A stretch of 64,000 nt of DNA from Thermoanaerobaculia bacterium (GCA_041671505.1 JBAZBK010000009.1:1-64000); one strand, 5' to 3'. Positions 4,185 to 33,046 are shown, numbered from the stretch's first letter. A program made the numbers and translations. Notes: generated from the letters alone by a model not told the origin.

Positions 4185-4454
4185 GGCGTCGGGACGAGGG
4201 CGATTCACGCGGGAGAAGCGCTGTCGTGGTTTTGAGCGCTCGTCGTGAGGGAAGGCCGGTCGATCTTGCCGGCGGCGCGCGGATGAGAGACGAAGAACCC
4301 CCGTCAGCGAGGGTGCGTGTTGGGCCGAGGAGCGTTCCTGCAGGACGCCGCCACCGTTGGATGGCATTTCCAGGCCATCGTCGGCGCTATACTTTTGTTA
4401 TCTCCAACCAGAGTCTCCCGGGTTGCCTCGTCAGCCCCGGATCCGGAGTCTGCT

Positions 4455-9800: not shown

Positions 9801-12800
9801 AGCGCGTCACTGATGCCGACGAGACCGAATGAGGCTGATCCGCCGGCGTTGGAGACAGTGAGAGTAAACGGCTTGCCGATGTCGCCCTGGCGAAACGGAT
9901 CGGCGTGCGATGACGTGACGACGAGGTCGGGCGCGGGGCAGTTGTTGATCAGGACGCTGACCGCGTTGCTGGTTTCGCTCGAGACCGCGAGCTCGTCCCG
10001 TCCGTCGCCGTCGAGGTCGGCGGCTGTGATGCCCACAGGGTGGACGAGCGGCCCGACGACCGAGGCGACGAAGGTTCCGTCCCCGTTGCCGCGCAGGATC
10101 GTCACGTCCTCGGAGTCGGCGCCCACGACGGCGAGATCGGGGATGCCGTCGTCGTTGACGTCGGTCGCGACGAGCGACGACGGATTCGTGCCGGTCGCGA
10201 CGAACGTTGCGCCCGCGAACGTCCCGGCGATGTTTCCGAGCAGGATTGCGACGTCGCCCGAGCCGCTGTTGGCGGTGGCGAGATCCAGCACTCCGTCGCG
10301 GTTGACGTCGGCGGCGATCAGCGCGACGGGCGCGGTGCCCGTGGCGACGGTCGATCCCGGCAGGAACGTTGCGTCGCCGTTTCCGCGAAGCAAAGTGATG
10401 TCGTTCGATCCGAAGTTCGCGACCGCGAGATCGAGGATCCCGTCGCGATCGAAGTCGGCCGCGATGACCGACCTGGGGGAGTCGCCGCAGGCGACGCTCG
10501 TGGCGGCGCCGAAGCTTCCCGAGCCGCTGCCGAGGAGTATCGAGATGTCGTCGGAGCCGGAGTTCGCGACGGCGACGTCGAGCCTCCCGTCGCGGTTGAA
10601 GTCGCCAATCGCCGAGGAGCGCGGCGCGCTTCCCGTGGCGTAGGCGACGGCGGGATCGAAGCTGCCGTCGGCGTTTCCGAGGAGGATCGACACGTCGTTC
10701 GAGGTCTGGTTCGCGACGGCGAGATCGGACGCGCCGTCGCCGTCGAGGTCGGCGACCTGGACGCTCCGCGGCACGGTGCCGGCGGCGTAGCTCGTCGGGG
10801 GCTGGAGCGTTCCGTCGCCTCGCCCGAAAGCGATCGAGACGTTGTTCGAACCGCGGTTCGCGGTGACGACGTCGGTCGCTCCGTCGGCATTGAAGTCGCC
10901 GGTCGCGATGCCGTCAGGAATACTGCCGACTGCATACATCGCTCCGGACTCGAGCGAGCCGCAGTTCATCTTGCATGCGCCCAAGTTCCGAAGGATCGTC
11001 AGAGAGGTGGCGCCCGCGGGCGCGACGATGAGGTCGGCCGAACCGTTGCGATCGACGTCGGCTGCGACGAGCTGCGACGGAAGCCATCCCGTCTCCCAGA
11101 CGCTCTGCGAGCCGAACGATCCGTCTGCCTGACCTAACAGCACGGTCACGGTGGAATCGTCTTCGCTCGAGACCGCGAGATCGGGGTGGCCGTCGTCGTC
11201 GACGTCGACGATCGCGACGGACGACGGGCCCTTGCCGACGGGGTAGGCGACCGCGGGACGGAACGTTCCGTCGCCGTTGCCGGTCAGTACCGACACGTCG
11301 TTCGAGCCGTTGCCGGTCGCCGCGAGGTCGAGGATGCCGTCGCCATCGACGTCTCCGAGCGCCACCGACGAGGTTCTCGTGCCTGCCGGATACGAGACGC
11401 CAGGCTGGAAGGTGCCATTGCCGTTTCCGAGAAGCACGACGAGCTGGTTCGCGTTGAACGCCGCGACGGCGAGGTCGGTTCTGCCGTCGTGGTTGAAATC
11501 TCCGGCCGCGAGCCAGTGCGGGCCGGAGGCGACGGCAACGCTGACGGGAGCGGCGAAGGAACCGTCACCGAGACCGCGAAGGATCGAGACGCTCGACGAA
11601 CCGTTGTTCGCGACGGCGAGGTCGACTTGGCCGTCCGCGTCGAAGTCGCCGGTTGCGATTGCGAACGGATTGGAGCCGCTCTGGAACTGCATGGCGGCGG
11701 AGAAGCTCCCGTTGCCGAGGCCGAGGTGCACCGACACCTGGCTTCCTCCCGCGTTCGCGATCGCGAGATCGAGCTTGCCGTCCCGGTTGAAATCGGCCGT
11801 CGCCACGGCCACGGGGGCGCTGCCGCCGACGAGGTTGGAGCCGATGCTGAACCCTCCGTCGTTGCGCCCGAGCAGGATCAGCGTCGTCGCGCTGTTCGCG
11901 GAGACGGAGGCGATGTCCATCGTGCCGTTCCGATCGAAATCTCCGAGCGCGATGCCGGTCGCCTCTCCGTACCAGCTCGGCGAGTAGTAACGGATGAATT
12001 TGGGACAGACCGTCACCGGCGGAGACTTCACCACGGTGACGGGGAGAAGCACGGTATGCCCCGCCTGACTGCTCCCCGCGCCGATCATCGCCGTCGCGCT
12101 GCTGCCCGCGTAGTACCCCGCGCTTGCGCTCGCGGTCAGGGTGAGCGTCGACGACGTCGTGGCGGGGTTCGGCGTGAACGATGCGGTCACGTAGGGCGGA
12201 AGGCTGGACGCCGAGAGTTGCACCGGCTCGCTGAAGCCTCCGGTCGGCGCGATCGCGATCTCGACGCTCACTGATTGACCGGCGATGACGGTCGCGACGG
12301 CGGGGTTCGTCGAGAGCGAAAAGTCGGCGCCTGCCGGGACGCCGAGCACCTTCGCGGCGTTGAGCCTGCCTCCGGTGATCGTCTTGCCGGCGAGGGCGGG
12401 GATCGGATCGACTCCGGAGAGAATCGCCTGCTTCACCTCGGCCGTGGTGAGGGTCGGGCTCTTCGAAAGCAGGAGCGCGGCGACGCCGGAAACGTGAGGC
12501 GCCGCCATCGACGTCCCGCTCAGGGACGTGTAGCCGCCGTAGGAATAGGTCGAGACGATGTTGGCTCCCGGGGCTCCGAGGTGGACGGTGTTGGGGCCGT
12601 AATTCGAAAACGCCGCGAGCCGGTCGCGATAGTCGGTCGCCGCGACCGTGATCACGTTAGGCGACGCGTAGCCCGCCGGATAGGTCGGCCAGGATTCGAT
12701 GTTGATGCTGTCGTTGCCCGCGGATGCGACGAAGAGGATGTCGTGCTCGTTCGCCTTGAGGATCTCGTCGAGCAGCGCCTTCGAGAACGCCTCTCCGCCC

Positions 12801-13651
12801 CAGCTGTTGTTGAGGACGCGAACGTTCACGCCTTCGATCTTCGCCTGGATCGCGAAGTCGATCGCGGCGATCGCGTCGGCGATCCAGCCGCCGTCGGCGT
12901 TCATGAACTTGAGCGGCATGATCGTCGTGGTCCAGTTCACGCCGGTCACCCCGAGTGCGTTGTTGCCGACCGCTCCGATCGTCCCGGCGACATGCGTCCC
13001 GTGGAAGCTGTCGAACGGTTTCGGGTCGCAGGTCCGGGTGATGGCGTCGAATCCGTGCGTGCCGGCGGCGCAGTTCGGGTCTCCGACGCCTCCGGGGTTG
13101 GACCAGATGTTCGCCGCCAGGTCGGGATGCGTGTAGTCGACGCCCGTGTCGACGACGCCGACGACGATGCCGGCCGAGCCGGTCGTCACGTCCCAGGCTG
13201 CTTCGGCGTTGATGTCGATCCCTGCGATGCCAGTCTCGTAGTAGCCGACGAGTTGACCCGTGTTGCGGAGCGCCCAGAGCTCGGAGTACTTCGTGTCGGC
13301 TGGAACCGCATTGCGGCGGATGATGTAGTTAGGCTCGACGTAGACGACGTTCGGGTTGTGCTCGAGCGCCCTGACGAGTGCCTCGGTGTTCTTCGAGCGC
13401 GAGCGGAATCGCCTGATCGTTCCCGACGTGACCTCCGCGAGCTTGTCGTCCTTGTCGATGTCGGCGCCTTGATGCGCAGCCGCGACTGCGGACGCCGGAG
13501 TCCCCGGCCGGAACTTCACGATCACCTCGCCAGGGGCCGATTCACCGGTCGGTTTGGCCGCCGCGGCGAGGGCCGTCCAGGGCATGAGGACGAGCCCGAT
13601 GACGGAGAAACGAACCAGTGCCTTCAAGGTGTGGCGCATCGCGATTTTCAA
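6857..13651 (-). CDS. Giant secreted S8 subtilisin-family serine protease (2264 aa) with FG-GAP/VCBS beta-propeller repeats, DUF11 repeats, an FN3 domain and the C-terminal HxxELR triple repeat.
   Basis: TTG start at 13651 with a GGAG Shine-Dalgarno sequence, and an alternative ATG at 13639. The signal peptide is MRHTLKALVRFSVIGLVLMPWTALAAAA. The S8 catalytic triad motifs are VGVVDTGVDYTHPDL (Asp), HGTHVAGTIGA (His) and GTSMAAPHVSGVAALL (Ser). There are many FG-GAP-type units such as GDFDADGQVDLAVAN and ADFNRDGKLDLAIAN. DUF11 units follow, for example LAVTKSHTG..YTIVARNAG..VTDVLPDALTATAMSGSGWTCDV. The C-terminus reads GVHLVELRNAV / AIHITELRARL / GVHIQELRDAVK. Confidence 0.85.
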   Translation of the reverse strand: MKIAMRHTLKALVRFSVIGLVLMPWTALAAAAKPTGESAPGEVIVKFRPGTPASAVAAAHQGADIDKDDKLAEVTSGTIRRFRSRSKNTEALVRALEHNPNVVYVEPNYIIRRNAVPADTKYSELWALRNTGQLVGYYETGIAGIDINAEAAWDVTTGSAGIVVGVVDTGVDYTHPDLAANIWSNPGGVGDPNCAAGTHGFDAITRTCDPKPFDSFHGTHVAGTIGAVGNNALGVTGVNWTTTIMPLKFMNADGGWIADAIAAIDFAIQAKIEGVNVRVLNNSWGGEAFSKALLDEILKANEHDILFVASAGNDSINIESWPTYPAGYASPNVITVAATDYRDRLAAFSNYGPNTVHLGAPGANIVSTYSYGGYTSLSGTSMAAPHVSGVAALLLSKSPTLTTAEVKQAILSGVDPIPALAGKTITGGRLNAAKVLGVPAGADFSLSTNPAVATVIAGQSVSVEIAIAPTGGFSEPVQLSASSLPPYVTASFTPNPATTSSTLTLTASASAGYYAGSSATAMIGAGSSQAGHTVLLPVTVVKSPPVTVCPKFIRYYSPSWYGEATGIALGDFDRNGTMDIASVSANSATTLILLGRNDGGFSIGSNLVGGSAPVAVATADFNRDGKLDLAIANAGGSQVSVHLGLGNGSFSAAMQFQSGSNPFAIATGDFDADGQVDLAVANNGSSSVSILRGLGDGSFAAPVSVAVASGPHWLAAGDFNHDGRTDLAVAAFNANQLVVLLGNGNGTFQPGVSYPAGTRTSSVALGDVDGDGILDLAATGNGSNDVSVLTGNGDGTFRPAVAYPVGKGPSSVAIVDVDDDGHPDLAVSSEDDSTVTVLLGQADGSFGSQSVWETGWLPSQLVAADVDRNGSADLIVAPAGATSLTILRNLGACKMNCGSLESGAMYAVGSIPDGIATGDFNADGATDVVTANRGSNNVSIAFGRGDGTLQPPTSYAAGTVPRSVQVADLDGDGASDLAVANQTSNDVSILLGNADGSFDPAVAYATGSAPRSSAIGDFNRDGRLDVAVANSGSDDISILLGSGSGSFGAATSVACGDSPRSVIAADFDRDGILDLAVANFGSNDITLLRGNGDATFLPGSTVATGTAPVALIAADVNRDGVLDLATANSGSGDVAILLGNIAGTFAGATFVATGTNPSSLVATDVNDDGIPDLAVVGADSEDVTILRGNGDGTFVASVVGPLVHPVGITAADLDGDGRDELAVSSETSNAVSVLINNCPAPDLVVTSSHADPFRQGDIGKPFTLTVSNAGGSASFGLVGISDALPRGLWATSIAGTGWDCALNTLTCLRSDSLGAGASYPPITLTVSVASAAPATLTNGATVTGGGEIDKTNDSTADVVTVTQDPDLVIEITRPNPFAQGETGQKYSIDVRNAGGAATSGAVTVTDALSTGLTATAIGGSGWNCNLGALSCSRSDALGSGASYPPISLTVNVAASAPVEVLNLASVSGGGELNLANSSAANRTAVWSSTACHQYGSGVAFLLGGGSTGTIAVGDFNGDTIPDIVGTPSYEGLAVLIGRGTGDFEPAVKSFDAVSFNSLTAVDLNRDSVLDLLALSFSSDSLSELIGAGDGSFVLRGTQAISDPQRMAIGDFNGDGFPDVAVIPGSGAKLSLFIGTGDGSMFAPFDVETLVNPSDIVSGDFDGDRIIDLAVSSALGDTLQLLRGIGDGTFHAPVVYSVGARPQRLAVSDLDDDGDLDLVASCSTSNYYESLVSVMLGRGDGTLTPATLWPAPSYSPFQVVIEDMNSDGDADIVLKSGYLQGNGDGSFLPYTTLPNSYGSGGLVVADLDRDGSQDIVMGSDGYAYTYLGSCIDLAVTKSHTGSLHGGQTGATYTIVARNAGTRPSRGAVTVTDVLPDALTATAMSGSGWTCDVASTTCTRGDILAPGAQFPSITLTVDVSNTTSWSVTNVAKLSGGGDANSTNNSWSDYTGILRHQDLVVSMSYFPTLSAGSTNVTFYAEVRNAGDEPTSGSVTFSLSVAPGLTLTGLSGTGWSCNTASATCTRSDSLGGSTYYPSLSAAVSVAENCPSPATSVATVSGGGDTSPDNNTDSMTSVVLTRPANFIARASGPNSALLTWSAIPNASGYEIARSTANGSFATLARVNSTSYTNYNLASTELYRYRVRAYHLDYSSTGPFSVIDSVLSSLSFTDDPVVAGTTVTRGVHLVELRNAVGRMRNAAGLASVTWTDPTLVGVPIKAIHITELRARLNEACSALGMPTQTFTDPTLTPGTPMKGVHIQELRDAVK

Positions 13652-14071: not shown

Positions 14072-16417
14072 CTACGCCTTCTCGTCCTCCGTGATCGTCA
14101 GGGTTGTTGCGGCGGGCGTGGAGAACGGCTTTCCCGTCAGTTTTTCCAGTAGGGCGACGCCGAAGAATCCGTCCATCACGCCACCCTTATCGCTCCCGCC
14201 GCCGATGACGAGGTTCTCCGGAATCAGTTTCAGGTGATTGGCTGCGATCTTTTCGACGACGCGGATCTGACCGAAGATCTCCTTGCTCATCGCCGCGACT
14301 TCCAGCTTGTAGGCCTCGGCGGTCGACTTGCCTTTGGCGAGGATGACTCCCGCTTCCGCGGTTCCGACCTTCGTCGTCGCTTCGGCATTGGCTTCCGCGT
14401 TCACCTTGGTGGCCGCGGCGTTTGCGCGTGCCGTGATCTCGACCGCTTCCGCGGCGCCCGACGCGTGAAGAATCGCCGCCTGCTTCGAGCCTTCGGCTGC
14501 CTTGACCGTGCCTTCCGCGATGTTCTTCTGGATCTCGACGTTTCGCTCCGACTCGACGACCTTGACCTGCATCGCGGCCTGGGCCTTCGCATTCTCGAGC
14601 GTCCGCCGCTCGTCCTGCGCTTCCTTCTGCATCGCGAAGGTCTTCTTCTCCTGCTCGGCGATCTGGCGGTCGGTGACCGTCTTCGTCAGCTCGGCCGGTA
14701 GGACGACGTCGGCGATCAACGTGTCCTTCGAATCGATGTGATGGACCTTGAGCACGGAGTCGATGTGCGCCTTTGCCGTCGCCTGCAATTCCTTGCGCTG
14801 CGTGTAGAGGTCGAGCGCCTTGATGTACTGGGCGGCATTGCGGAAGTGCGAGCTGATCGCCGGCTCGAGGACCTGCGAGATCATGTTCTTCACGGAACCG
14901 AGGTTCGCGATCACCTTCGGCGCGTTCTTGACCGGGATGTGGATGATCACGCTGACGTCCATGTTGACGTTGAACGCGTCGGCGGTGCGGAGCGTGATCG
15001 TCTTCAGGTTCGAGTCGAGCTCGTGCGCGCTCGATCGATTGTCGGCCCAGTTGAGCAGGATCTGCGTCGTCGGCACGATGTCGACCTTGCAGATCTTCGT
15101 GTTGAGCGGGTGTTTGCCCGGCTGCAGCGGATCGGCCCAGATGCCCTTGCTCCCGTTGGCGACGATCTTGGCGTTCACGGCGTCGTCGGTCGTGTCCGCT
15201 CCTTCCGGGCCGACGTAGCTCGTGACGACGCCGCAGTACCCGATGTCGACGCGAATCATGTCGACCTTCTCGATCGTCGCGAACCAGGGATTGATCGCGT
15301 AGTTGCCGGCGCGGAGCACCGGGATCTGGAGACCCTTCTGTCCGCCTCCCTTGAGGAAGGCGTCGGGGTCCTGGAAGTTGTTGTGCACGCCGAGTGGCAG
15401 CTCCTCCGCGGCGATCTTCGACGGATCGACGATCGGCTTGCCTTCGTTGATCGTTACGATGCCGACCTGGTCGGCGTCGATGTGCGTCCAGTCGACGATG
15501 TCGATGACCTTGAAGAGCGCCGGATTGAGGCGATAGCGCCCCGGCATGAGCACGTCGAGCTGACGTCCCTTTTCTCCACCGCACCTGATGAAGGCCTCAC
15601 CATCGAAGAAGTTCTTGTGGCCGTCCACCTTGGCGGCGAGGAGGCGCCCCTCGGGGATCCTCGCTCCATCGGTGGCTTCCACGAGGCCGACCTTGCCGCC
15701 GGGGATTTCGGTCATCGGCCGCTTCTCGACTTTGAAGAGAATCGTATTGACCCGGTAGAGGCCGGGAACGAGGAAGAAGAGTTGAGGCCCCTTCTGGCCT
15801 CCGTTCTTGATGAAGGCCTCGGCGTTCTGGAAGCTGTCGCACTCAACGGGAGAGCCGAAGTTGCCCCCTTCACGCGACACCGGCTTTCCGGCGATCGATT
15901 CGACGTAGCCGACCTCGTTGTCTTCGATCATGACGGCCGGGACGATGGCGACCTCGAACAGGTGCGGGTTGATCTTGTACTCGCCGTCGGGGAGGATCGC
16001 GAGCTGCGGTCCCTTTTCGCCGCCGCCGCTCAGAAACTTCTCCCCGTCCTGGAAGAGATCGCAGACGATCGGCCTGGCCATGATGGCGCCCGATGGCATC
16101 GGCGCGCCGGTGATCGCCCGCACGACTCCGACGTGGTTAGGCTTGATGACCAGGAACGGATGCTTCTTGGTCTTGTAGATGAACGGGGCGAGAAGGTGGA
16201 AGCCGGGCCCGAGTACGCGCGCCTGCACGCCGACCTCGTTGCGGAGCGCGACGGTGCGCCCGTCCGGCATCTGCCTGCCGAACCAGCGCCGCTCCACGGT
16301 GATGATCTGATCGCCCTTTGCGATGGTGAACGAATTGAGGAGCATCACGAGCACGACGATCGCCAGGAGTATCTGGGCGACGCCTCCGGTCAGGAACGGC
16401 ACGACGGATTCCAGCAT
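14072..16417 (-). CDS. Flotillin/SPFH (band-7, YqiK-like) membrane protein with four N-terminal tandem repeats of roughly 70 aa.
   Basis: ATG 16417 carries an AAAGGGGAAG Shine-Dalgarno sequence. There is an N-terminal transmembrane helix (VAQILLAIVVLVMLLN). Four repeats follow with the form F(Q/F)DxEAFxxGGxKGxQxxxLxPGxYxxNPxxFxV. The C-terminal half is SPFH/flotillin-like with a coiled-coil Ala/Glu/Lys-rich region (AEQEKKTFAMQKEAQDERRTLENAKAQAAMQVKV...). Confidence 0.8.
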   Translation of the reverse strand: MLESVVPFLTGGVAQILLAIVVLVMLLNSFTIAKGDQIITVERRWFGRQMPDGRTVALRNEVGVQARVLGPGFHLLAPFIYKTKKHPFLVIKPNHVGVVRAITGAPMPSGAIMARPIVCDLFQDGEKFLSGGGEKGPQLAILPDGEYKINPHLFEVAIVPAVMIEDNEVGYVESIAGKPVSREGGNFGSPVECDSFQNAEAFIKNGGQKGPQLFFLVPGLYRVNTILFKVEKRPMTEIPGGKVGLVEATDGARIPEGRLLAAKVDGHKNFFDGEAFIRCGGEKGRQLDVLMPGRYRLNPALFKVIDIVDWTHIDADQVGIVTINEGKPIVDPSKIAAEELPLGVHNNFQDPDAFLKGGGQKGLQIPVLRAGNYAINPWFATIEKVDMIRVDIGYCGVVTSYVGPEGADTTDDAVNAKIVANGSKGIWADPLQPGKHPLNTKICKVDIVPTTQILLNWADNRSSAHELDSNLKTITLRTADAFNVNMDVSVIIHIPVKNAPKVIANLGSVKNMISQVLEPAISSHFRNAAQYIKALDLYTQRKELQATAKAHIDSVLKVHHIDSKDTLIADVVLPAELTKTVTDRQIAEQEKKTFAMQKEAQDERRTLENAKAQAAMQVKVVESERNVEIQKNIAEGTVKAAEGSKQAAILHASGAAEAVEITARANAAATKVNAEANAEATTKVGTAEAGVILAKGKSTAEAYKLEVAAMSKEIFGQIRVVEKIAANHLKLIPENLVIGGGSDKGGVMDGFFGVALLEKLTGKPFSTPAATTLTITEDEKA

Positions 16418-16539
16418 TACTTCCCCTTTCGTTTGACGGCCAGGATCGCAGCAGGCCTTACGTTATCGCATTCCGCTGGATCTCTCACCTCTCAGCGTCG
16501 CGACGGGGAATCGTGAAATCCGGCGGCGCTAAGTCGCTC

Positions 16540-16959
16540 CTAGAACTTGGGCCGATCCGCCGGGCTTGCGGGACTCTTTGGGTCTGGCAGTACAGGTGGG
16601 AACGAGATCACGTCGATCTCGTCGGCGTAGTAGCGGTCGTCGCGGTACCAGCCCTTGATGACGATCTCCGCTCCGGTGATCTCTTCCCAGGAGCGGAGGT
16701 TCTTACCCCCGCCGCTGTTGGTGAAGATCGTCTGCTCGTCGATCCAGACCGCCGCGGCGACGGAACGCTTCGCGCCGTCGACGGTTCTGGTCTGGACGCG
16801 GAGTGTCCCGAAGTTCGAATCGATGCTCCTCACGACGGCGCGCACGGTCGAAGGCTTGTCGGGCTCTCCGCCGAGAGGGTTGAGGATCTCCACTCGATCT
16901 GCGCTGCTGCAACCCTGCAGCGCGAGGGTGATGAGGAGGGCGAAGAGCGGGTTTCTCAT
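16540..16959 (-). CDS. Small lipoprotein of unknown function.
   Basis: ATG 16959 carries a GGGAG Shine-Dalgarno sequence. The lipoprotein signal is MRNPLFALLITLALQGCSS. The protein is 139 aa. The longer track ORF 16540..17385 has an Arg-rich N-terminal extension that is unlikely to be real. Confidence 0.6.
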   Translation of the reverse strand: MRNPLFALLITLALQGCSSADRVEILNPLGGEPDKPSTVRAVVRSIDSNFGTLRVQTRTVDGAKRSVAAAVWIDEQTIFTNSGGGKNLRSWEEITGAEIVIKGWYRDDRYYADEIDVISFPPVLPDPKSPASPADRPKF

Positions 16960-17411
16960 GATGGCTCCCTCGACGGAGTATGCGGCCAGCCGCCCGGTGC
17001 GGCGCGGCTGCAGAATCATGGTTCCCGCGGCGTCCCGTGGGCGACCTAACCTCGACGGCCGGTCCGCAACGAGGCGTTTCGACGATTGTACCAGCGGCAG
17101 GGCCCGTGCCGTGCCGCGTCGCCGACGGTCACCGGACGAGCCAGTCACCCGTTGCACGCCGTCGTCGGTGACGGGGAGCATGCCGAACGTGTGCGCAACT
17201 ACGTCGGCGGCGACGGGCTGGGACCTGGGACGGTGCGTGCGATCGTGTTCGACCGTCACGGGCGCGCGTGGATCGGCCGGCAGAGCCAGGGGGCGCGAGC
17301 GTCTCCGCCCCCCGTGCTCGCGTGCAGCATAGGCGGTGAGGCCTGGCGCGCCGTGTACACCCCCGACCGACACGGAAGCTGCCACGCAGCCGCTGGTATC
17401 ATGCGCGCGAA

Positions 17412-18440
17412 ATGCGACGAACGAATCAGCCTGCGATCGTCTCCTGCGTGATGCTGCTCCTCGGTTTGATCTGTTACGACGAGACCGAGTCGGCGGCCGC
17501 CACGCTCAAGGATCAGCGCATGGCGATGGGCTCGCGTTTCGAGATCACCGCCGTGCACCCCGATGCGAAACAATGCCAGGCGGCAATCGACGCGGCCTAC
17601 GCCGAGATCGAACGGATCGAGGCGGTGATCTCCGAGTGGCGCGAGACCTCGACGGTCAGCGAGATCAATCGCAATGCGGGAGTCGAACCGGTCGTCGTGT
17701 CGCGCGAGCTCTTCAACCTCACGCGGCGGTCGTTGCGCGTCTCGAGTCTCACCGATGGCGCATTCGACATTACCTTCCACACCGTCGGCCGCCTCTGGAA
17801 CTTCAAATCGCGGACGTCTCCGATTCCTGACGACGCGTCGATCAAGCGGGCCTTGAAGGACACCGGCTATCAGCACGTCATTCTCGACGAGTCCAGGCTC
17901 ACGATCTATCTCGATCGCAAGGAGACCCGCATCGGCTACGGGGGCATCGGTCAGGGTTACGGTGCGAATCGAGCAGTGTTCGTCCTGAAGGAGTACGGGG
18001 TCACCGGGGGCGTGGTCAACGGCAGCGGCGACCTCGTTCTGTTCGGCAAACAGGAGAACGGCAAACCGTGGCGAGTAGGCATCGCGAATCCGCTCGACAG
18101 GAACAAGGTTTTCGCCTGGCTCGATGCGACCGAGCAGGCGGTGGTGACGTCGGGTGACTACGAGAACTACATCGAGTTCGAGGGGAAGCGATACTCGCAC
18201 ATCCTCGATCCCCGGACCGGCTATCCGGCCAGGGAAGTGCGCAGCGTCACGATCGTGTGTGCGGATGGGGAATTGGCGGACGCTCTCGCCACCGGTGTGT
18301 CAGTATTGGGCGTCGATGCGGGGCTGAAGCTGATCAATCGGCTTCGCGGTGTCGAGGCGATGCTCGTGGACGAGAGTGGAGCGGTCCATTTCTCGGACGG
18401 TCTCGAGGCGATGTTGACGAAGACAGGTGTCGAGAAATGA
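17412..18440 (+). CDS. apbE: FAD:protein FMN transferase (ApbE family).
   Basis: ApbE-family hallmarks include MGSRFEIT near the N-terminus, the flavin-binding region GIGQGYGANRAVFVLKEYGVTGGVVNGSGDLV, and C-terminal TSGDYENYIEFEGKRYSHILDPRTGYP. Confidence 0.85.
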   Translation: MRRTNQPAIVSCVMLLLGLICYDETESAAATLKDQRMAMGSRFEITAVHPDAKQCQAAIDAAYAEIERIEAVISEWRETSTVSEINRNAGVEPVVVSRELFNLTRRSLRVSSLTDGAFDITFHTVGRLWNFKSRTSPIPDDASIKRALKDTGYQHVILDESRLTIYLDRKETRIGYGGIGQGYGANRAVFVLKEYGVTGGVVNGSGDLVLFGKQENGKPWRVGIANPLDRNKVFAWLDATEQAVVTSGDYENYIEFEGKRYSHILDPRTGYPAREVRSVTIVCADGELADALATGVSVLGVDAGLKLINRLRGVEAMLVDESGAVHFSDGLEAMLTKTGVEK

Positions 18441-18655
18441 AACGTGGTGCCCTGATCATTCTGCTTCTCGGTAGCCTGGCGGGACTGACCGGCTGCGCGA
18501 CGGTACAGCCGTGGGAACGCGGCACGCTCAGCTCCGAATCGATGAAGCTCGACGACTGCCGGACGCATCGCTTCGAGCGGAACGTCGAGGTCTATCGCGA
18601 GGGAGCCGTTGGCGGCAACGGCGGCAAGTCGGGCGGGGGCTGCGGATGCAGCTGA
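18437..18655 (+). CDS. DUF4266-type small lipoprotein.
   Basis: The ATG overlaps the apbE stop (ATGA). The product is MKRGALIILLLGSLAGLTGCATVQPWERGTLSSESMKLDDCRTHRFERNVEVYREGAVGGNGGKSGGGCGCS. It has a lipobox and a Gly-rich C-terminal GGGCGC motif typical of DUF4266. Confidence 0.65.
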   Translation: MKRGALIILLLGSLAGLTGCATVQPWERGTLSSESMKLDDCRTHRFERNVEVYREGAVGGNGGKSGGGCGCS

Positions 18656-19839
18656 GAGCTCTGGCTTCGCGGCTGCTTGCAGGCGCTCTCGTCTCCGTCG
18701 GCCCGGCGCTGTTAGGTCAGGCCGAGCCCGAGGGGCGTTTCGATGCCGACATTCTCTTCAGTTACTACAGTCAGGATGGCGACCACTCTCCGGTGACCGG
18801 GGGAATCGGCACCGAGGAGCTCGAAGTCGTCTCTCCCGTAGTCGTCCTCGCCTGGCGCGTCGACGAGAAGATGACCCTGACCGCCGACATCGGCATCGAT
18901 CAGATCTCCTCGGCGTCGATCGGAAACATCCAGATGGAGCTGGGCGGCGCCAGCATTCCGGCGAGTGACACCCGAACCTTCGGCACGTTCAAGGCGAAGA
19001 GGAAGTTCGGCAACCAGACGTTAGGCCTCACGCTGGGCGCCGCGAGCGAGTACGACTACGAGTCGTTCTCGTACGGGCTCGACTGGGCGATCGACCTGAA
19101 TCAGGCGAACACCGGGATCGCAGCGGCCATCCGGCGCTACGACGACGCGATCGACCTCATCGGAATCGACGGTTATGGCTCGCAGGGCCCGGGAGTGCCG
19201 CGCACCGAAGGGAAAGGCGACCGTACGACGACGGATGCGGTATTCACTCTCTCGCAGACGCTCGGACGCCGGACGGCCGGATCTCTCGAGCTGTTCATGA
19301 GCCAGCAGGAAGGCGTCCTCTCGACGCCGTACCATGAAGTGATTCTGATCTCGGACTCGCCGCTCTACCCGGACGGGAAGCACGTGGCCGAGAGGCTTCC
19401 GGACAGCCGGGATCGAAAGGCGCTCGGAGTGAGGCTGAACCACGGCTTCACAGACGGATTCGTGCTGCGCACGGGGTATCGGTATTACGAGGACGACTGG
19501 GGCATCGCCTCGCACACGATCGATCTGGAAACGCACTTCAGGCTGCCGACGGATCGCGAGATGTGGCTCTATCCGATCCTGCGTTACCACACGCAGACCG
19601 GCGCCGACTACTTCGGCCTGCCGCTCACCTTCACCGGTGCCGAGGACTACTACTCGTCCGACTACGACCTCTCGGAATTCTCGTCGGACAAGTACGGCCT
19701 CGGCTGGAATCTATTCACGCTTCCGAACGAGAGCTGGCTCCGGTACGTCGATCGGTTCGAAGTGCGCGGGACCTTCTACGACCGTGACGACGGGCTCTCG
19801 GGATTCACGACCTCGTTCTCGTTCGGATCGACATTCTGA
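18646..19839 (+). CDS. DUF3570-type secreted protein, probably an outer-membrane beta-barrel.
   Basis: ATG 18646 overlaps the upstream gene by 10 nt. The signal peptide is MQLRALASRLLAGALVSVGPALLGQAEP. Alternating hydrophobic beta-strand-like segments occur (DADILFSYYSQDG, VVVLAWRVDEKMTLTADIGIDQISSAS), and the protein ends in an aromatic C-terminal residue, F. The genomic context (apbE, DUF4266, tlpA) matches the conserved cluster. Confidence 0.6.
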   Translation: MQLRALASRLLAGALVSVGPALLGQAEPEGRFDADILFSYYSQDGDHSPVTGGIGTEELEVVSPVVVLAWRVDEKMTLTADIGIDQISSASIGNIQMELGGASIPASDTRTFGTFKAKRKFGNQTLGLTLGAASEYDYESFSYGLDWAIDLNQANTGIAAAIRRYDDAIDLIGIDGYGSQGPGVPRTEGKGDRTTTDAVFTLSQTLGRRTAGSLELFMSQQEGVLSTPYHEVILISDSPLYPDGKHVAERLPDSRDRKALGVRLNHGFTDGFVLRTGYRYYEDDWGIASHTIDLETHFRLPTDREMWLYPILRYHTQTGADYFGLPLTFTGAEDYYSSDYDLSEFSSDKYGLGWNLFTLPNESWLRYVDRFEVRGTFYDRDDGLSGFTTSFSFGSTF

Positions 19840-20294
19840 TGCGACGCGCCATCCTGATTCTCGCTCTTCTGGTCGCGCTGCCGAGCTCCGCCGTGCTGGC
19901 TGCGGAGACGGACCAGCGTGGAGCCGCGCATGAGTGGAAGGGCCCGTCTTCGGGTTACACCGTGATCGATTTCGCCGCTGCCTGGTGTCGCCCCTGCTGG
20001 GACGTGCTTCCACGTCTCGAAGCGTTCGCAGGGAGCCATCCCGCGATTCGCGTGCTGGTCGTGAGCGTCGACGACACGGTCAAGGGCCGTGACGCGCTCG
20101 TGGAGAAGCTGAAGCTCACCATCCCCGTCGTCTGGGACGAGAAGCATCGCATCGCCGAGCACTATCGCCCCGTGGGCATGCCCTCGACCTTCGTGCTCGA
20201 CCCCGCGGGAACGATCGTCTACTCGCACGTGGGCTCGGGGATGAAGGAGTGGAACGCGATGTTGGCGTTCCTCGAGAACGCGACGAAGCGTTGA
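19839..20294 (+). CDS. TlpA-family periplasmic thiol:disulfide oxidoreductase (thioredoxin fold).
   Basis: The ATG overlaps the upstream stop (TGATG). The signal peptide is MRRAILILALLVALPSSAVLA. The active-site WCRPC motif is present, and the product is 151 aa. Confidence 0.8.
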   Translation: MRRAILILALLVALPSSAVLAAETDQRGAAHEWKGPSSGYTVIDFAAAWCRPCWDVLPRLEAFAGSHPAIRVLVVSVDDTVKGRDALVEKLKLTIPVVWDEKHRIAEHYRPVGMPSTFVLDPAGTIVYSHVGSGMKEWNAMLAFLENATKR

Positions 20295-20435
20295 TCGCGC
20301 CTGCGCGAGTTTCGCCGCGAGCCGCGAGCGCGACGCCGTTTTCTTCTACGGCTCACTTCGGCTCGCTTCGACAATTCGAGAACTGTTAGGCGCGGATTCA
20401 TCGCGCATGCCGCGAGAGTTGACCTCGTTCGTTCG

Positions 20436-21335
20436 TCACTCCGCCCACGGCTCGCCCGGCGGGAAGCCGAAGTTCATGCGGATCGTGGCGTACTCCGCGT
20501 CGATCATGCCGCTCGCGGTGCGGATCGTGAGCGGCGGCTCGACGACAGGACGCCATGAGCCTCCGGCACCGAACGCTCCCGGAAGGTCGGCGATCCTCGC
20601 TGCTGCGAAGAGCGAGAGCATCGGCGGCTCGCCTTCCTTGAAGATGACGTCGCGCCGGCGCAGGGCCACGAGCGCGCTGGAGCGGAGCGCCTCCTCCGCC
20701 CGTTCGCGCTGCGCGAAGGGAAAGACGAAGGCGAAGATGCCGCCCGGGGCGAGGATGCGCGCGGCCGTCGCCGCGTAGTCGGCAACGGTCCCTCGCATCT
20801 CGACGCGCGCGGGAACCGCCTGCGGATGCGCCGCCTTCGAGGCGGTGCCTTCCGGAAAATAGGGAGGCGACCCCGTGACCAGATCGAACGGAGGTTCGCC
20901 CTCGAAGAGCGCGGGATCGCGCAAGTCACCCTCGAGAAGGCGGTATCGCTCCGCGAGTCCGTTGTACTCGACGCTCTTTCTCGCGAGGCCAATCGAAACC
21001 GGCTGCGCCTCGACCGTCACCATCCTCGCGCCGGGCAGCCGCCACGCGACGATCATCGCGACCGAGCCGATGCCCGAGCCGAGATCGGCGGCGCGATCGA
21101 CTCGGGGCGCCCACTGCGTCCCGTACCACGCGGTCAGCACGTCGTCAGTCGAGAAGCGGTGACCGCGTGCGAGCTGGAAGATGCGGAAATGCCCGGCGAT
21201 ATAGTCGAGCGTCTCACCCTCGAGCGGCTCGATTCCACCGGGAGGCAGCGGGCCGGGACGGGCCCAGCCGCGGAATCGATGGCCGTCAGTTGCATCGGAT
21301 TGAACGGGAGGAGTCACGGGCGAAGTATGCAGCAT
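20436..21335 (-). CDS. Class I SAM-dependent methyltransferase (N6-adenine/TrmN6-like small-domain type).
   Basis: ATG at 21335 (MLHTSPV...). Motif I is DLGSGIGSVAM and motif IV is VTGSPPY (the D/N-PPY class). The longer track ORF starting at 21407 has an improbable N-terminal extension. Confidence 0.75.
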   Translation of the reverse strand: MLHTSPVTPPVQSDATDGHRFRGWARPGPLPPGGIEPLEGETLDYIAGHFRIFQLARGHRFSTDDVLTAWYGTQWAPRVDRAADLGSGIGSVAMIVAWRLPGARMVTVEAQPVSIGLARKSVEYNGLAERYRLLEGDLRDPALFEGEPPFDLVTGSPPYFPEGTASKAAHPQAVPARVEMRGTVADYAATAARILAPGGIFAFVFPFAQRERAEEALRSSALVALRRRDVIFKEGEPPMLSLFAAARIADLPGAFGAGGSWRPVVEPPLTIRTASGMIDAEYATIRMNFGFPPGEPWAE

Positions 21336-21827
21336 TCTCGACGACCGGACGCTCACGCGTCCGGCTACACATCTCTCGCATCGCTGTCGCGACGCTTGAG
21401 GCCTCACGGCCTCCGTGCGGCGTGTCCTGAGTCAAATTCAAATCGACACCGCACAGGATCCGCTCTAACTTTCACGAATCAGGCCACTTCCGAACTAGAG
21501 ATCCGAATTGAACCGGACAGCAGCGATCCGTACGTTGGGCGGGCGGAGCTCTCTGAGCGCCCGCTCGCTCCGCGAGAGTCGCAACGCTCGCCGCGGCGCC
21601 ACAAAGGGCTATCGGACATCACGCGAGTGATCGCCGCCACGTTTCCTCCTCGCCCCAGGCGATATGCTCTCCCTGCGGTCGTCCGCGCGCCCCGGAATGG
21701 TTCCGGCACGAGCAGTCCGGCGTCAGGGAGGACCTTTACAGCACGGACTCGACACGGCCGGACGCCGCGCGGAGAGGGGCGGGACGATGGTTCCCCCTGG
21801 CCGCGACGCCGGCAGCGGAAGAAAAGC

Positions 21828-23012
21828 ATGAACGTACTCGTCCTCAACTGCGGATCCTCCTCTCTCAAGTTTGCGGTCATTGATCCCGATGTCCCGACCG
21901 AGCACGTGTCGGGCATCGCACAGCGGCTCGGCTCCCCCGAGGCCTCGCTCGACGTCAAGCGGAACGGCGCGAAGAGCTCGCGCCCGATTCCGGGAGCGCT
22001 TCACGACGAGGCGCTCCACGCCGTCGTCGACGTTCTTCGTGACCTCGGCCTCGCGGACGGACTCCTCGCGGTCGGCCACCGTGTCGTCCATGGCGGCGCG
22101 AAGTTCGCCGGCTCGATGGCGATCACTCCCGAGGTCATCGCGATGGTCGAGGAGTGCATCCCGCTCGGGCCGCTCCACAATCCGCCTAACCTCGTCGGCA
22201 TCCGCATCGCGCAGAAGCTCTTTCCGGAGCTCCTGCAGGTCGGCGTGTTCGACACGGCGTTCCATCAGACGATGCCGCCCGTCGCCTACACCTACCCGGT
22301 GCCGACCGAGTGGCTCGAGAAGCACGGCGTCCGGCGCTACGGATTCCACGGCACGAGCCACCGCTTCGTCGCGCGCGACGCGCTCCGCCTTACCGGGCTG
22401 CCGGCCGACGACCATGCGATCGTTACCGCGCATCTCGGGAACGGCTGCTCCGCCGCCGCGGTTCGCAATGGCAGGAGCGTCGACACGACCATGGGGCTGA
22501 CGCCGCTCGAGGGACTGATGATGGGAACGCGAAGCGGCTCGATCGATCCGGCGATCATCGGCCACGTTGCCGATGCGACGGGGAAGAGCGCGAAGGAGAT
22601 CCTCGACGTCCTCAACAAGAAGTCGGGCCTTCTTGGAGTCTCGGGCATCTCGAACGACATGAGAACCGTCGAGGAAGCCGCCGCGAACGGCAACGAGAGG
22701 GCGGGCCTCGCGCTCGAGCTCTTCTGCTACGTGCTGGCGAAGTCGATCGCTTCGCTCGTCGTCCCGCTCGGCCGGCTCGACGCGCTCGTCTTCACGGGCG
22801 GAATCGGCGAGAACTCGACGACGGTCCGGGCGAAGACGATCGAGAGGCTCGGATTCCTCGGCCTTACGCTCGACCCCGCGGCGAACGCCACGCACGGACG
22901 CGGGCAGAATGGACGCATCACAACGACCACGCGACCTCAGGCTCTCGTCGTTCCGACGAACGAGGAGCTGATGATCGCCGAGGATGCCGAGCGGATCGCG
23001 CGCGGCGTCTGA
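21828..23012 (+). CDS. ackA: Acetate kinase.
   Basis: ATG 21828 carries a GGAAG Shine-Dalgarno sequence. Full-length hallmarks are present: MNVLVLNCGSSSLKF, GHRVVHGG, HLGNGCS and VFTGGIGENS. Confidence 0.9.
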   Translation: MNVLVLNCGSSSLKFAVIDPDVPTEHVSGIAQRLGSPEASLDVKRNGAKSSRPIPGALHDEALHAVVDVLRDLGLADGLLAVGHRVVHGGAKFAGSMAITPEVIAMVEECIPLGPLHNPPNLVGIRIAQKLFPELLQVGVFDTAFHQTMPPVAYTYPVPTEWLEKHGVRRYGFHGTSHRFVARDALRLTGLPADDHAIVTAHLGNGCSAAAVRNGRSVDTTMGLTPLEGLMMGTRSGSIDPAIIGHVADATGKSAKEILDVLNKKSGLLGVSGISNDMRTVEEAAANGNERAGLALELFCYVLAKSIASLVVPLGRLDALVFTGGIGENSTTVRAKTIERLGFLGLTLDPAANATHGRGQNGRITTTTRPQALVVPTNEELMIAEDAERIARGV

Positions 23013-23035: not shown

Positions 23036-25213
23036 ATGCGCACTACCGTCATCGTCGCTCCTGCCGGGCGTGGCGTCGGCATCACCACCGCCTGCCTCGG
23101 CATCGTCCGCGCGCTCGACCGCGAAGGCATCCGCGTCGGCTTTGCAAAGCCGGTCGCAAATCGCGAGCCCGACCACACCATCCCTTTGCTCTCGTTAGGC
23201 GCGCACTTCGCCATTCCGCCCGCGGTACCGCGTGGCGAGGCCGAAGCGCTGCTCGCCGCGGGTGACGACCAGACGCTGATGGAGCGCGTCGTCGCCATCG
23301 CCGACAAGGCGGGCGAGGACGTCGACGTGCTGATCATCCAGGGGATGCACCCCGAGATGGGCATGGTGCACTCCTCGCGCGTGAACGCGCTGATGCTCAA
23401 GGCTCTCGATGCCGATCTCGTGCTCGTCGCCGCGCCGGCCGCCGATCAGACGCCGGCAGAGGTCGCCGAGACGATCGCGATCGCGGCGCGCGGCTACGGC
23501 GCGCTCTCGGACGGGCGCGTGGTGGGCGCCATCCTGAACCGGGTGTGCGAGAAGAAGGGAGACGCGAGCGAGCTCGACGGCGACTCCTTCGGCCCCGGCT
23601 CCGCCGGCTGCTCGGGTTGCGCGGTCCCCGGACTCTCCGCGGAGCGAAAGAAGGAGTTCACGGATGCACTCGACGCCGAGGGACTCCGCGCCATCGCGAT
23701 CGTTCCGTGCAACTCCGATCTCATGGCGATGCGCGTCAAGGACATCGGCGACGCGCTCAATGCGCAGGTTCTCTACCCGGGCGAAGCGCGGACCCGACGC
23801 GTCAAGGATGTGGCCGTATGCGCGATGACCGTCGCGAATGCGCTCCGCGGGTTGAAGCCCGGAACGCTCGTGATCACTCCGGGCGACCGCGCCGACATCC
23901 TCCTGGCGGCCGCGCTCACGGTTCAAAGTGGAACGCCTCTCGCGGGTGTCCTTCTGACGGGAGGGCTCGCTCCCGACCGTCGCATCCTCGACCTCTGCCG
24001 GAAAGTCTTCGACGCAGGGCTCCCGCTCCTCCAGGTGCAGGCCTCGAGCTACCGGGCGGCGACGCAGGTCGCCTCGATGAACTCGACCATCCCGGTCGAC
24101 GACGCCGACCGGGTTGAGCGGACGATGAGCTTCGTCGCCGACCACGTCGATCTCGTCTGGGCGCGAGCCTTCGAGAAGCCGGCGCGCGCACCGCGCCTTT
24201 CGCCGCCGGCGTTCCGGCACCGTCTCGTGGAGACGGCGCGCGCGGACCAGAAGCGCATCGTCCTCCCCGAGGGGGCCGAGCCGCGGACCGTGGTGGCGGC
24301 GTCAATCGTGGCCGCGCGGCGTATCGCGCATTGCGTTCTTCTCGGGAACCCCGAGGAGATTCACGACGTGGCCGGGCGGCAGGGAATCATCCTGCCGCCA
24401 TCGGTGGAGATCATCAACCCGACCGAAGTCGCCCACCGTTACATCGCGCCGCTCGTCGAGCGCCGTGCGTCCAAGGGGATGACCGTCGAGCGCGCGGAGG
24501 TCGAGCTGCAGGACAACATCATGATCGGCACGATGATGATGGTGTTAGGCGAAGCCGACGGCCTCGTGTCGGGTGCGATCCACACGACGGCTCACACGAT
24601 CCGGCCCGCGCTGCAGATCATCAAGACCGTTCCGGGATGCAGCCTCGTCTCGAGCATCTTCTTCATGTGTCTGCCCGACCAGGTGCTCGTCTTCGGCGAC
24701 TGCGCCGTCAACCCTAACCCGACCGCCTCGGAGCTCGCCGACATCGCGATCCAGAGCGCCGACTCCGCGATCGCGTTCGGCGTCCCGCCGCGCATTGCGA
24801 TGCTCTCGTACTCGACCGGCGCAAGCGGAACGGGAGAGGACGTCGACAAGGTCGTCGAGGCGACGCGCATCGCGCGCTCGCTTCGTCCCGAGCTCCTCAT
24901 CGACGGGCCGCTCCAGTACGACGCGGCGATCATGCCCGACGTCGCGCGCCTCAAGGCGCCGAAGTCGGAGGTCGCAGGGAAGGCGACGGTCTTCATCTTC
25001 CCCGACCTCAACAGCGGAAACGTCACCTACAAGGCGGTGCAGCGCTCGGCGAATGTCGTAAGCATCGGCCCGATGCTGCAGGGTCTCGCCAAGCCGGTGA
25101 ACGATCTCTCGCGCGGCTGCCTCGTCGAGGACATCGTCTTCACGATCAACCTCACGGCGATTCAGGCGCAGCAGGTCGCGAGGCTGAAGGCGAATGCGAT
25201 GGTGATGGTCTGA
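23036..25213 (+). CDS. pta: Phosphate acetyltransferase (long form with an N-terminal AAA/DRTGG domain).
   Basis: ATG 23036 lies 24 nt after the ackA stop, and the product is 725 aa. The C-terminal PTA_PTB catalytic domain contains SGAIHTTAHTIRPALQIIKT, DCAVNPNP and GPMLQGLAKPVNDLSRGC. The longer track ORF 22310..25213 is a frame artefact. Confidence 0.9.
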   Translation: MRTTVIVAPAGRGVGITTACLGIVRALDREGIRVGFAKPVANREPDHTIPLLSLGAHFAIPPAVPRGEAEALLAAGDDQTLMERVVAIADKAGEDVDVLIIQGMHPEMGMVHSSRVNALMLKALDADLVLVAAPAADQTPAEVAETIAIAARGYGALSDGRVVGAILNRVCEKKGDASELDGDSFGPGSAGCSGCAVPGLSAERKKEFTDALDAEGLRAIAIVPCNSDLMAMRVKDIGDALNAQVLYPGEARTRRVKDVAVCAMTVANALRGLKPGTLVITPGDRADILLAAALTVQSGTPLAGVLLTGGLAPDRRILDLCRKVFDAGLPLLQVQASSYRAATQVASMNSTIPVDDADRVERTMSFVADHVDLVWARAFEKPARAPRLSPPAFRHRLVETARADQKRIVLPEGAEPRTVVAASIVAARRIAHCVLLGNPEEIHDVAGRQGIILPPSVEIINPTEVAHRYIAPLVERRASKGMTVERAEVELQDNIMIGTMMMVLGEADGLVSGAIHTTAHTIRPALQIIKTVPGCSLVSSIFFMCLPDQVLVFGDCAVNPNPTASELADIAIQSADSAIAFGVPPRIAMLSYSTGASGTGEDVDKVVEATRIARSLRPELLIDGPLQYDAAIMPDVARLKAPKSEVAGKATVFIFPDLNSGNVTYKAVQRSANVVSIGPMLQGLAKPVNDLSRGCLVEDIVFTINLTAIQAQQVARLKANAMVMV

Positions 25214-28863: not shown

Positions 28864-29005
28864 GGGAAACGCGCGAACTCGAATCGGTGTCCGTGAAGAG
28901 ACTCGTGAACTGGCGTGTTGAGAGGCGTGCGTTCCGCGGTTCGCGCCAGGGCGCGACGCAGCTCCCGCGGTGCTAAAATCGCGACCTCGCAACAAGGAGG
29001 TCACC

Positions 29006-32925: not shown

Positions 32926-33046
32926 ACGCAGCGATGCTACCACGAGGGAAACGCGCCGCAGGGAGGCGGTTCCCTAACAACGCGCTTCCGGGGCCGTGGC
33001 CACAAAGGCGGAGGATGGCCGGTAACGACCCCGGCGTTTCGCCGCA

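Follow-up and report, generated by a model that had tools for sequence, protein, structure and literature searches.

A four-gene ApbE–DUF4266–DUF3570–TlpA operon of a Thermoanaerobaculia bacterium: predicted flavinylation sites and a proposed thiol-to-flavin relay ending in the outer membrane

Which protein is modified by a flavin transferase whose gene is followed by those of a small lipoprotein, a protein of the DUF3570 family and a thioredoxin-like protein, and where would electrons enter and leave such a set? This question is raised by positions 17412-20294 of the window, as we call the whole stretch of 64,000 nucleotides analysed here, which derives from a Thermoanaerobaculia bacterium (GCA_041671505.1 JBAZBK010000009.1:1-64000). 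The original prediction for this region was a conserved but uncharacterised cluster of four overlapping plus-strand genes, apbE, a DUF4266 lipoprotein, a beta-barrel-like DUF3570 protein and a TlpA thioredoxin, forming one translationally coupled operon for extracytoplasmic flavinylation. The open reading frames (ORFs) and the junction sequences bear out the four genes, all three overlaps and the coupling, and we consider the assignment to an extracytoplasmic flavinylation and thiol-redox module to be correct. The cluster is conserved as well; it is not undescribed, this cluster type having been reported by Méheust et al. in 2021 (eLife 10:e66878; PMC8238504). Very probably, the window operon is a member of the published ApbE/DUF3570/DUF4266/thioredoxin-like system, with DUF3570 as the protein that receives the flavin. 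The best explanation of the data as a whole is, in our opinion, a thiol-to-flavin relay ending in the outer membrane, to which we give an even chance. The genes and motifs on which the argument relies are listed below, the CGC, start-codon and CxxC entries having been read directly from the sequence.

17412-18440, plus strand: apbE, encoding the flavin adenine dinucleotide (FAD):protein flavin mononucleotide (FMN) transferase, 342 amino acids (aa); PF02424 at E 1e-83, profile positions 1-266 of 266
18437-18655, plus strand: DUF4266 small lipoprotein, 72 aa; PF14086 at E 9e-18, lipobox LTG-C20
18646-19839, plus strand: DUF3570 protein, 397 aa; PF12094 at E 1e-36, signal peptide, predicted 16-strand barrel, C-terminal Phe
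19839-20294, plus strand: TlpA/ResA-like periplasmic thioredoxin-fold protein, 151 aa; AhpC-TSA, Thioredoxin_8 and Redoxin matches
18641-18649, plus strand: CGC of DUF4266 (C69-G70-C71), a putative redox-active vicinal disulfide
18646-18648, plus strand: ATG start codon of DUF3570, inside the GGA-TGC codons of DUF4266
18793-18816, plus strand: loop-L1 motif V50-TGGIGTE-57, kept across the DUF3570 family
18898-18918, plus strand: predicted flavinylation site A, D85-Q-I-S-S-A-S91, acceptor Ser91; ApbE motif with Gly replaced by Ser
18940-18954, plus strand: predicted flavinylation site B, L99-G-G-A-S103, acceptor Ser103; degenerate form of [VLI]-S-[SG]-A-S
19986-19997, plus strand: CxxC active site C50-R-P-C53 of the TlpA-like protein

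Specifically, the DUF4266 start codon lies over the apbE stop codon (ATGA, 18437-18440), DUF4266 and DUF3570 share 10 nt (18646-18655), and DUF3570 and the TlpA-like gene overlap as TGATG (19837-19841); the end of apbE and the start of DUF3570 are 206 nt apart within the same operon. The apbE product matches PF02424 across the full profile and is encoded beside the substrate gene, as in the published clusters. Its N-terminus is a Sec-type signal peptide, probably cleaved at ...ESAAA|TLKDQR, and the closest solved ApbE structures by sequence are 7esa (E 2e-44), followed by 1vrm, 6nxi and 3pnd. The possibility that ApbE is itself a lipoprotein was rejected: homologues from the same kind of cluster carry AxA signal-peptidase I sites and no conserved lipobox. 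Both assignments to domain families of unknown function hold under hidden Markov model (HMM) search, with 65.4 bits against a cut-off of 27 for DUF4266 (PF14086) and 126.9 bits against a gathering cut-off of 25 for DUF3570 (PF12094). The PF12094 alignment spans profile positions 116-378 of 427, and the N-terminal third of the protein, which contains the flavinylation sites, is uncovered. The DUF3570 signal peptide would be cleaved at about LLGQA|EPEG; a 100%-identical protein is on record, annotated as DUF3570 and encoded on a 195-kb contig, from a Thermoanaerobaculia metagenome-assembled genome (MAG) of the Acidobacteriota.

Clusters of ApbE, DUF3570, a thioredoxin-like protein (PF13899) and DUF4266 were described by Méheust et al., who counted 227 of them with DsbD and a further 316 without it, and who pointed out the conserved C-terminal CXC of DUF4266 (PMC8238504). 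For the partner in the 316 clusters, the paper gives no closer designation than 'thioredoxin-like'. In their experiments, the DUF3570 protein of Chlorobium luteolum was flavinylated by its cognate ApbE, and Ser-to-Ala changes at both motifs were needed to abolish the modification; the construct, made without the signal peptide, was flavinylated in the cytoplasm of Escherichia coli and was found mostly in the pellet of lysed cells. The same paper records the VIT1 ferrous-iron transporter in 25 DUF3570 clusters and ties several flavinylated systems to iron assimilation. Its text does not use the word 'barrel', does not link DUF3570 to the outer membrane and does not mention a start codon within the CGC codons. 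DUF3570 is not named in a 2024 mSystems paper (PMC11334425) or in a 2025 Journal of Biological Chemistry review (PMC12052999), and the DUF4266, DUF3570 and TlpA neighbourhood receives a brief mention in a 2023 preprint.

The window operon shares with the published clusters the four families, the position of apbE beside DUF3570 and the CXC-ended DUF4266, and it is a member of the subclass (316 clusters) without DsbD nearby. In contrast to the published PF13899 partner, its thioredoxin-like protein is of the TlpA/Redoxin/AhpC-TSA type, gives no PF13899 match and is encoded downstream of DUF3570; in addition, site B of its DUF3570 is GGAS, a variant seen in no other homologue examined. The cluster type has therefore been known since 2021, and what is lineage-specific in the window is the TlpA-type partner and the degenerate site B. 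Our data add an invariant GGGCGC[NST] tail of DUF4266, a DUF3570 start inside Gly-Cys codons across phyla and a thioredoxin partner that depends on the lineage.

To what extent the arrangement is kept elsewhere was assessed in a scan of species-representative genomes, which returned 171 loci with a DUF3570 relative, 80 of them being taken for locus analysis, and in a full HMM search, which gave 3067 representatives of 50%-identity clusters at E <= 1e-3. Alignments were built from 117 database homologues, from the DUF3570 proteins of 79 genome loci and from 134 diverse 50%-identity cluster representatives. The order apbE-DUF4266-DUF3570 is found in 76 of the 80 loci and apbE is adjacent in 78, while the closest relatives (65-85% identity) retain the same operon. 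The DUF3570 family is spread over Acidobacteriota, Bacteroidota, Ignavibacteria, Planctomycetota and other groups; no Chlorobium locus was returned by the species-representative genome scan. When all ORFs of the 80 loci were clustered against each other, no non-core neighbour recurred in more than about 10 loci, and the top recurring clusters were antisense shadow ORFs. The real neighbours, each in at most 10 loci, comprise a two-component system, DPP-IV, a metallophosphoesterase and housekeeping genes. The two-component system (an OmpR-type response regulator with a HAMP/HisKA kinase) adjoins the cluster in about 10 loci from different phyla, for example L065:3454-5506, L043:3315-6111, L004:2727-4926 and L034:11061-11756, and none is adjacent in the window; where it adjoins the cluster, it could be a regulator of the operon. 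In a Labilibaculum MAG, tandem DUF3570 paralogues (L055:6524-7825 and 7881-9131) follow a single apbE-DUF4266 pair.

Regarding the protein that carries the flavin, the original prediction had found no obvious target in the DUF proteins. Our analysis points instead to DUF3570, through the relaxed motifs DQISSAS (residues 85-91) and LGGAS (residues 99-103), which had been missed because a strict [S/T]GAT[S/T] motif was sought, whereas the family uses [ST]SAS-type sites. The window protein contains no strict [ST]GA[ST], and neither do 103 of 120 close homologues or 100 of the 134 diverse representatives; as [ST]SAS is the consensus throughout the family, we do not count this absence against flavinylation. 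What the family does keep is a pair of x-x-A-S motifs 12 residues apart, with the consensus [ST]SAS occurring twice. Site A has the family form D-x-[IVY]-[ST]-[SA]-A-S, both [ST][SA]AS and the Asp at -6 being present in 117 of 117 close homologues, and [ST]SAS is found in 121 of 135 rows when the diverse representatives and the window protein are taken together. Site B has the form [VLI]-[ST]-[SG]-A-S (SSAS, the majority form, in 86/117, SGAS in 17/117, or about 10-15%). A Ser occupies each of the two acceptor positions in no fewer than 116 of the 117 homologues. Since both positions are Ser in essentially every member and match the serines mutated in PMC8238504, we infer that Ser91 and Ser103 are the probable FMN acceptors, an assignment made by motif logic and not by alignment to the C. 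luteolum protein. The ApbE motif D-x-x-[S/T]-G-A-[S/T] is known to be tolerant, a G-to-A change keeping about 50% flavinylation and a D-to-A change having a minor effect (PMC12052999).

Classical ApbE substrates, such as NqrB/NqrC, RnfD/RnfG, NosR and the FMN_bind domains of PplA, are modified by the same enzyme family, and site A of DUF3570 shares with them Asp at -6, Ser/Thr at -3, Ala at -1 and a hydroxyl acceptor. The acceptor is Ser in DUF3570 in place of the usual Thr, however, and almost all members of the DUF3570 family have Ser where the classical motif has Gly at -2; moreover, the carrier is an outer-membrane beta-barrel, as opposed to the FMN_bind domain or inner-membrane subunit of the classical substrates. 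A further motif of the family, VTGGxG[TS]E (residues 50-57), is essentially invariant in the sets of 117, 80 and 134 homologues. In one Thermoanaerobaculia subclade (loci L027-L031), an Asp/Glu/His insert of about 30-50 residues lies exactly between the two flavinylation serines; it contains HDHDHDHD stretches and long poly-Asp runs, e.g. DDDDDDDDDDEYDDEYDE, and looks like a cation-binding stretch beside the flavins.

The second constant partner is the DUF4266 lipoprotein. Its 79 homologues all share one architecture, in which a signal peptide and a lipobox Cys are followed by about 50 residues and then by a YREGxxGxNGGKxGGGCGC[NST] tail. All 79, from several phyla, terminate in GGGCGC[NST]-COOH, and between Acidobacteriota and Bacteroidota the tail hardly varies. 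The Gly-rich C-terminal tail of the window protein reads YREGAVGGNGGKSGGGCGCS; the GGGCGC motif noticed in the original prediction is thus present, and it is not the exact terminus, as the product ends in GGGCGCS. At the DNA level, the gene ends in TGC GGA TGC AGC TGA. An in-frame ATG of DUF3570 lies inside the Gly-Cys codons, with an overlap of 10 or 16 nt, in 57 of 78 sequences including the window and covering several phyla, and in some of the remaining ones, e.g. L001, GGGTGC puts a GTG at -10. The same bases at 18641-18655 thus encode a conserved peptide motif and a start codon. So deep a conservation of translational coupling suggests that DUF4266 and DUF3570 are made together and work as partners.

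The periplasmic thiol partner, in contrast, varies with the lineage. The window TlpA-like protein has a signal peptide (...AVLA|AE), a WCRPC active site and a cis-Pro region GMPSTF, and it matches PF00578 (AhpC-TSA, E 4e-13), PF13905, PF08534 and PF00085. Its NCBIfam scores lie far below the respective equivalog cut-offs for StoA (53.8 against 210), ResA (49 against 170), DsbE (31.4 against 123) and TlpA (24.6 against 230), and the closest solved sequences are 3kcm, StoA 3erw and ResA 4nmu. It has in common with TlpA, ResA, StoA and DsbE the thioredoxin fold, the signal peptide and WCxxC; it is a member of the superfamily only, not an orthologue of a characterised member, and its proposed client is the CGC lipoprotein, not the cytochrome maturation proteins. 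That it supplies reducing equivalents, as originally predicted, is plausible.

A TlpA-type gene lies downstream of DUF3570 in 33 of 34 Acidobacteriota-type loci, whereas in 38 of the 46 other loci (Bacteroidota, Planctomycetota and others) a Thioredoxin_7 (PF13899) gene lies directly upstream of apbE; the Thioredoxin_7 proteins of the cluster are similar to the thioredoxin domain of DsbD. Two Ignavibacteria MAGs have the thioredoxin and transferase parts in one ORF: L057:1456-2922 encodes Thioredoxin_7 and a complete ApbE domain in 488 aa (Pfam), and L074:5952-7547 is a single 531-aa ORF matching both (jackhmmer, phmmer). By their sequences, both look like natural fusions of a thiol partner to a flavin transferase. 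As two unrelated thioredoxin subfamilies occur in the cluster, a periplasmic dithiol partner appears to be a functional requirement, and the exchange of the TlpA-type for the Thioredoxin_7 protein may represent a family swap preserving function. DsbD was detected within 8 kb in 1 of the 80 loci, namely L036 of the Planctomycetota MAG NORP49, in which a full-length DsbD of 822 aa (DsbD_N, DsbD_TM, Thioredoxin_7; L036:9168-11636) is encoded directly downstream of DUF3570.

What kind of protein would present the flavins? A search of PDB sequences with the DUF3570 profile gave no match. The AlphaFold2 model, built on a 60-sequence alignment, has a mean predicted local distance difference test (pLDDT) of 87.9 and a predicted template modelling score (pTM) of 0.81, and it consists of 16 long beta-strands, in agreement with the barrel-like character originally assigned to this protein. 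Turns of 2-5 residues follow strands 2, 4, 6, 8, 10 and 12, and long loops follow strands 3, 7, 9 and 13. The window protein ends in Phe, and 103 of 117 homologues likewise have an aromatic residue at the C-terminus. A signal peptide, an even strand number and a C-terminal aromatic residue are thus all present, and together with the model they indicate that DUF3570 is probably an outer-membrane barrel. In the strand list of the model, the acceptor serines fall in loop L2 (residues 90-106, strands 3-4) and the VTGG motif in loop L1 (residues 47-55, strands 1-2); by the general topology rule of periplasmic termini, the serine loop and the VTGG loop would both lie on the outer or lumenal side.

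The closest folds are the substrate-conducting barrels PgaA, PelB, BcsC and CymA. PgaA (4y25), PelB (9h80, whose partner is the lipoprotein PelC) and BcsC (6tzk) are 16-strand exopolysaccharide-export barrels, with 8-13% identity to DUF3570. Unlike them, DUF3570 lacks a TPR or periplasmic domain and is not encoded near polysaccharide synthesis genes, and the exporters have no flavinylation sites; the likeness is one of fold only. Membership in the MtrB/PioB porin-cytochrome family was also considered and rejected. The window DUF3570 gives no PF11854 (MtrB_PioB) match even at E <= 10, and no CxxCH motif is found in the cluster or in the neighbouring genes; among the homologues, P0100 shows a sub-threshold MtrB_PioB match (E 1e-4, 21.5 bits against a cut-off of 23). 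With both features absent, this is not a porin-cytochrome system, though it may work like one: in the porin-cytochrome conduits (MtrAB/MtrC, PioAB), as in the logic proposed here, the barrel encloses a redox carrier that is loaded from the periplasmic side. In the DUF3570 system, which has no multihaem cytochromes, FMN and a dithiol would take the carrier role, and the MtrB barrel has 26 strands as compared with 16.

By combining these elements, a relay can be drawn in which all four products would be exported. ApbE would transfer FMN from FAD, by a phosphoester bond, to Ser91 and Ser103 of DUF3570, most likely in the periplasm. With sites that face outwards and an ApbE that is periplasmic, this modification would have to precede the folding of the barrel; a flavinylation before folding is plausible, if compared with the cytoplasmic flavinylation and pellet recovery of the C. 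luteolum substrate (PMC8238504). DUF3570 would then assemble as a 16-strand outer-membrane barrel, with both flavin serines in loop L2 on the outer or lumenal side. DUF4266 would be synthesised in step with the barrel, because the barrel start codon lies inside the last codons of the lipoprotein. Its lipid-anchored tail is proposed to reach into the barrel, where the CGC pair would trade electrons with the flavins. The potential of such a CGC pair is close to typical flavin potentials. For the CGC disulfide itself, a mimic of protein disulfide isomerase (PDI), an E0' of about -167 mV is given by Woycechowsky and Raines (2003), as cited in PMC4316792. The WCRPC protein would ferry reducing equivalents across the periplasm to the CGC, being in turn reduced by a DsbD/CcdA encoded elsewhere in the genome, and the net flow would run from thiol to CGC to FMN and on to an acceptor at or beyond the outer membrane. 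This scheme in its entirety is put forward tentatively, at somewhat below an even chance. The present data establish the identities of the genes, their export signals, the conserved motifs, the gene order and the barrel fold, and the literature establishes flavinylation at two serines for a homologue; the exact sites in the window protein, the orientation of the loop, the meeting of CGC and flavin, the direction in which electrons flow and the last acceptor are inferences.

Several observations weigh against this relay. Neither motif of the window DUF3570 is a strict [S/T]GA[S/T]. Site B, moreover, has neither an Asp at -6 nor a Ser/Thr at -3, and its GGAS is seen only in the window protein among about 330 homologues, an 85%-identical relative having GSAS; therefore site B may be the weaker one, and one of the two window sites may be poorly modified or unmodified. 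The proven C. luteolum serines are placed on Ser91 and Ser103 by motif logic only. In the model, the loop with both sites has a pLDDT below 50 (residues 93-105), its outer or lumenal placement comes solely from the general rule for outer-membrane protein topology, and outward sites would in turn require flavinylation before barrel folding. A six-frame jackhmmer search with the transmembrane domain of the L036 DsbD found no DsbD/CcdA in the 64-kb window, and the ORFs of the window with multiple transmembrane segments give no DsbD_TM match in Pfam. The terminal acceptor and the contact between DUF4266 and DUF3570 have the status of proposals, and the neighbouring genes (an SPFH protein, a methyltransferase and ackA-pta) offer no functional hint.

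The same components can also be assembled differently. In a purely periplasmic relay, as in the model given by Méheust et al. in Figure 4D so far as the accompanying text describes it, electrons would pass from DsbD via the thioredoxin-like protein to the flavinylated DUF3570 and on to a periplasmic target, with the barrel as a mere anchor and the flavins facing the periplasm. Periplasm-facing flavins are the simplest arrangement, given the periplasmic location of ApbE, of the TlpA-like protein and of the lipoprotein; the flavin loop, which is of low confidence in the model, has no fixed position, and the text of PMC8238504 puts the system among DsbD-fed extracytosolic electron-transfer modules. 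Nevertheless, the sites lie in the strand 3-4 loop, which is outer or lumenal if the N-terminus is periplasmic, the short turns being at the opposite end of the barrel, and by strand-list position most of the invariant residues are found at the end of the flavin loop. A 16-strand barrel would also be elaborate for merely anchoring two flavins, and we regard this scheme as unlikely. More unlikely still is a redox-assisted import channel, in which lumenal flavins would reduce a solute during uptake, e.g. Fe(III) or a ferric chelate, and the thiol relay would re-reduce the flavins. Such a function would agree with VIT1 in 25 DUF3570 clusters and the iron-assimilation links (PMC8238504), with the Asp/Glu/His-rich insert between the sites in L027-L031 and with the nearest folds PgaA, PelB, BcsC and CymA, which conduct substrates. 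No iron-uptake gene or transporter is linked to the cluster in the window or in the 80 loci, however, and the acidic insert occurs in one subclade only and is absent from the window protein.

Electrons might also run the other way, the cluster acting as a flavin-dependent sulfhydryl oxidase like QSOX/Erv, which would make disulfides: the thioredoxin-fold protein would oxidise substrates in the envelope, and electrons would leave via CGC and FMN to an external acceptor. QSOX has the order thioredoxin-fold CxxC, second vicinal dithiol, flavin, and these parts match the components of the cluster. Several of the host lineages, however, are presumably anaerobic and without O2 as an acceptor, and the DsbD gene of L036 stands directly downstream of the cluster. 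In addition, proteins of the TlpA/ResA/StoA type and DsbD-gamma-like Thioredoxin_7 proteins usually act as reductants, with DsbD as their electron source (PMC8238504). Even with a CGC disulfide that is relatively oxidising (-167 mV, PDI mimic; cited in PMC4316792), we consider an oxidase improbable. Finally, the window DUF3570 could be unflavinylated, or flavinylated at one site only, in an operon that is decaying or has been repurposed. The absence of a strict [S/T]GA[S/T] and the unique GGAS of site B would fit this explanation. It appears very improbable, given that the strict motif is equally missing from 100 of the 134 diverse representatives while apbE is adjacent in 78 of the 80 loci, that both sites keep their Ala-Ser core and Asp85 is preserved, that the four genes are intact, tightly coupled and have high-GC3 coding signatures, and that the 65-85% identical relatives retain the operon.

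Returning to the thiol-to-flavin relay ending in the outer membrane, its boldest form would make DUF3570 and DUF4266 a cytochrome-free outer-membrane electron conduit, with two FMNs tethered inside the barrel and a threaded CGC tail feeding them through the DsbD/thioredoxin pathway. We consider this form doubtful. If true, such a conduit would do with flavins and thiols what the MtrAB complex does with a porin and cytochromes, and the roughly 3000 cluster representatives would make it a widespread and so far unrecognised pathway of extracellular electron transfer or cell-surface redox chemistry. The relay itself, if correct, would be a haem-free addition to the Gram-negative electron routes to or across the outer membrane. 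A barrel with two flavin serines in one loop, a CGC lipoprotein and interchangeable thioredoxins would turn the co-occurrence of these DUF families into a concrete, testable model.

With regard to the surroundings of the operon, a scan of 16400-20900 for promoter and terminator consensus sequences gave no promoter-like site and a single terminator-like site, on the minus strand, which is below the number expected by chance. The flanking genes are the following:

14072-16417, minus strand: SPFH protein, 781 aa
16540-16959, minus strand: small lipoprotein
20436-21407, minus strand: methyltransferase
21828-23012: ackA
23036-25213: pta

Since these genes are unrelated to the cluster, the four genes form a self-contained operon. 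Elsewhere in the window, two minus-strand ORFs, 26563-29055 (830 aa) and 30829-32943 (704 aa, with about nine hydrophobic segments), have no Pfam match at E <= 1e-3. The SPFH/Band-7 protein is unusually large for its family and has a long N-terminal region in which a GG(E/Q)KG(P/R)QL...PG.Y..NP segment occurs several times. Two reprolysin-like metalloprotease genes (1836-4184 and 4317-6770) precede the gene of a giant secreted protein of 2264 aa (6857-13651, minus strand), which combines a fervidolysin-like prodomain, a subtilase S8 domain, about 16 FG-GAP repeats, DUF11 and CARDB.

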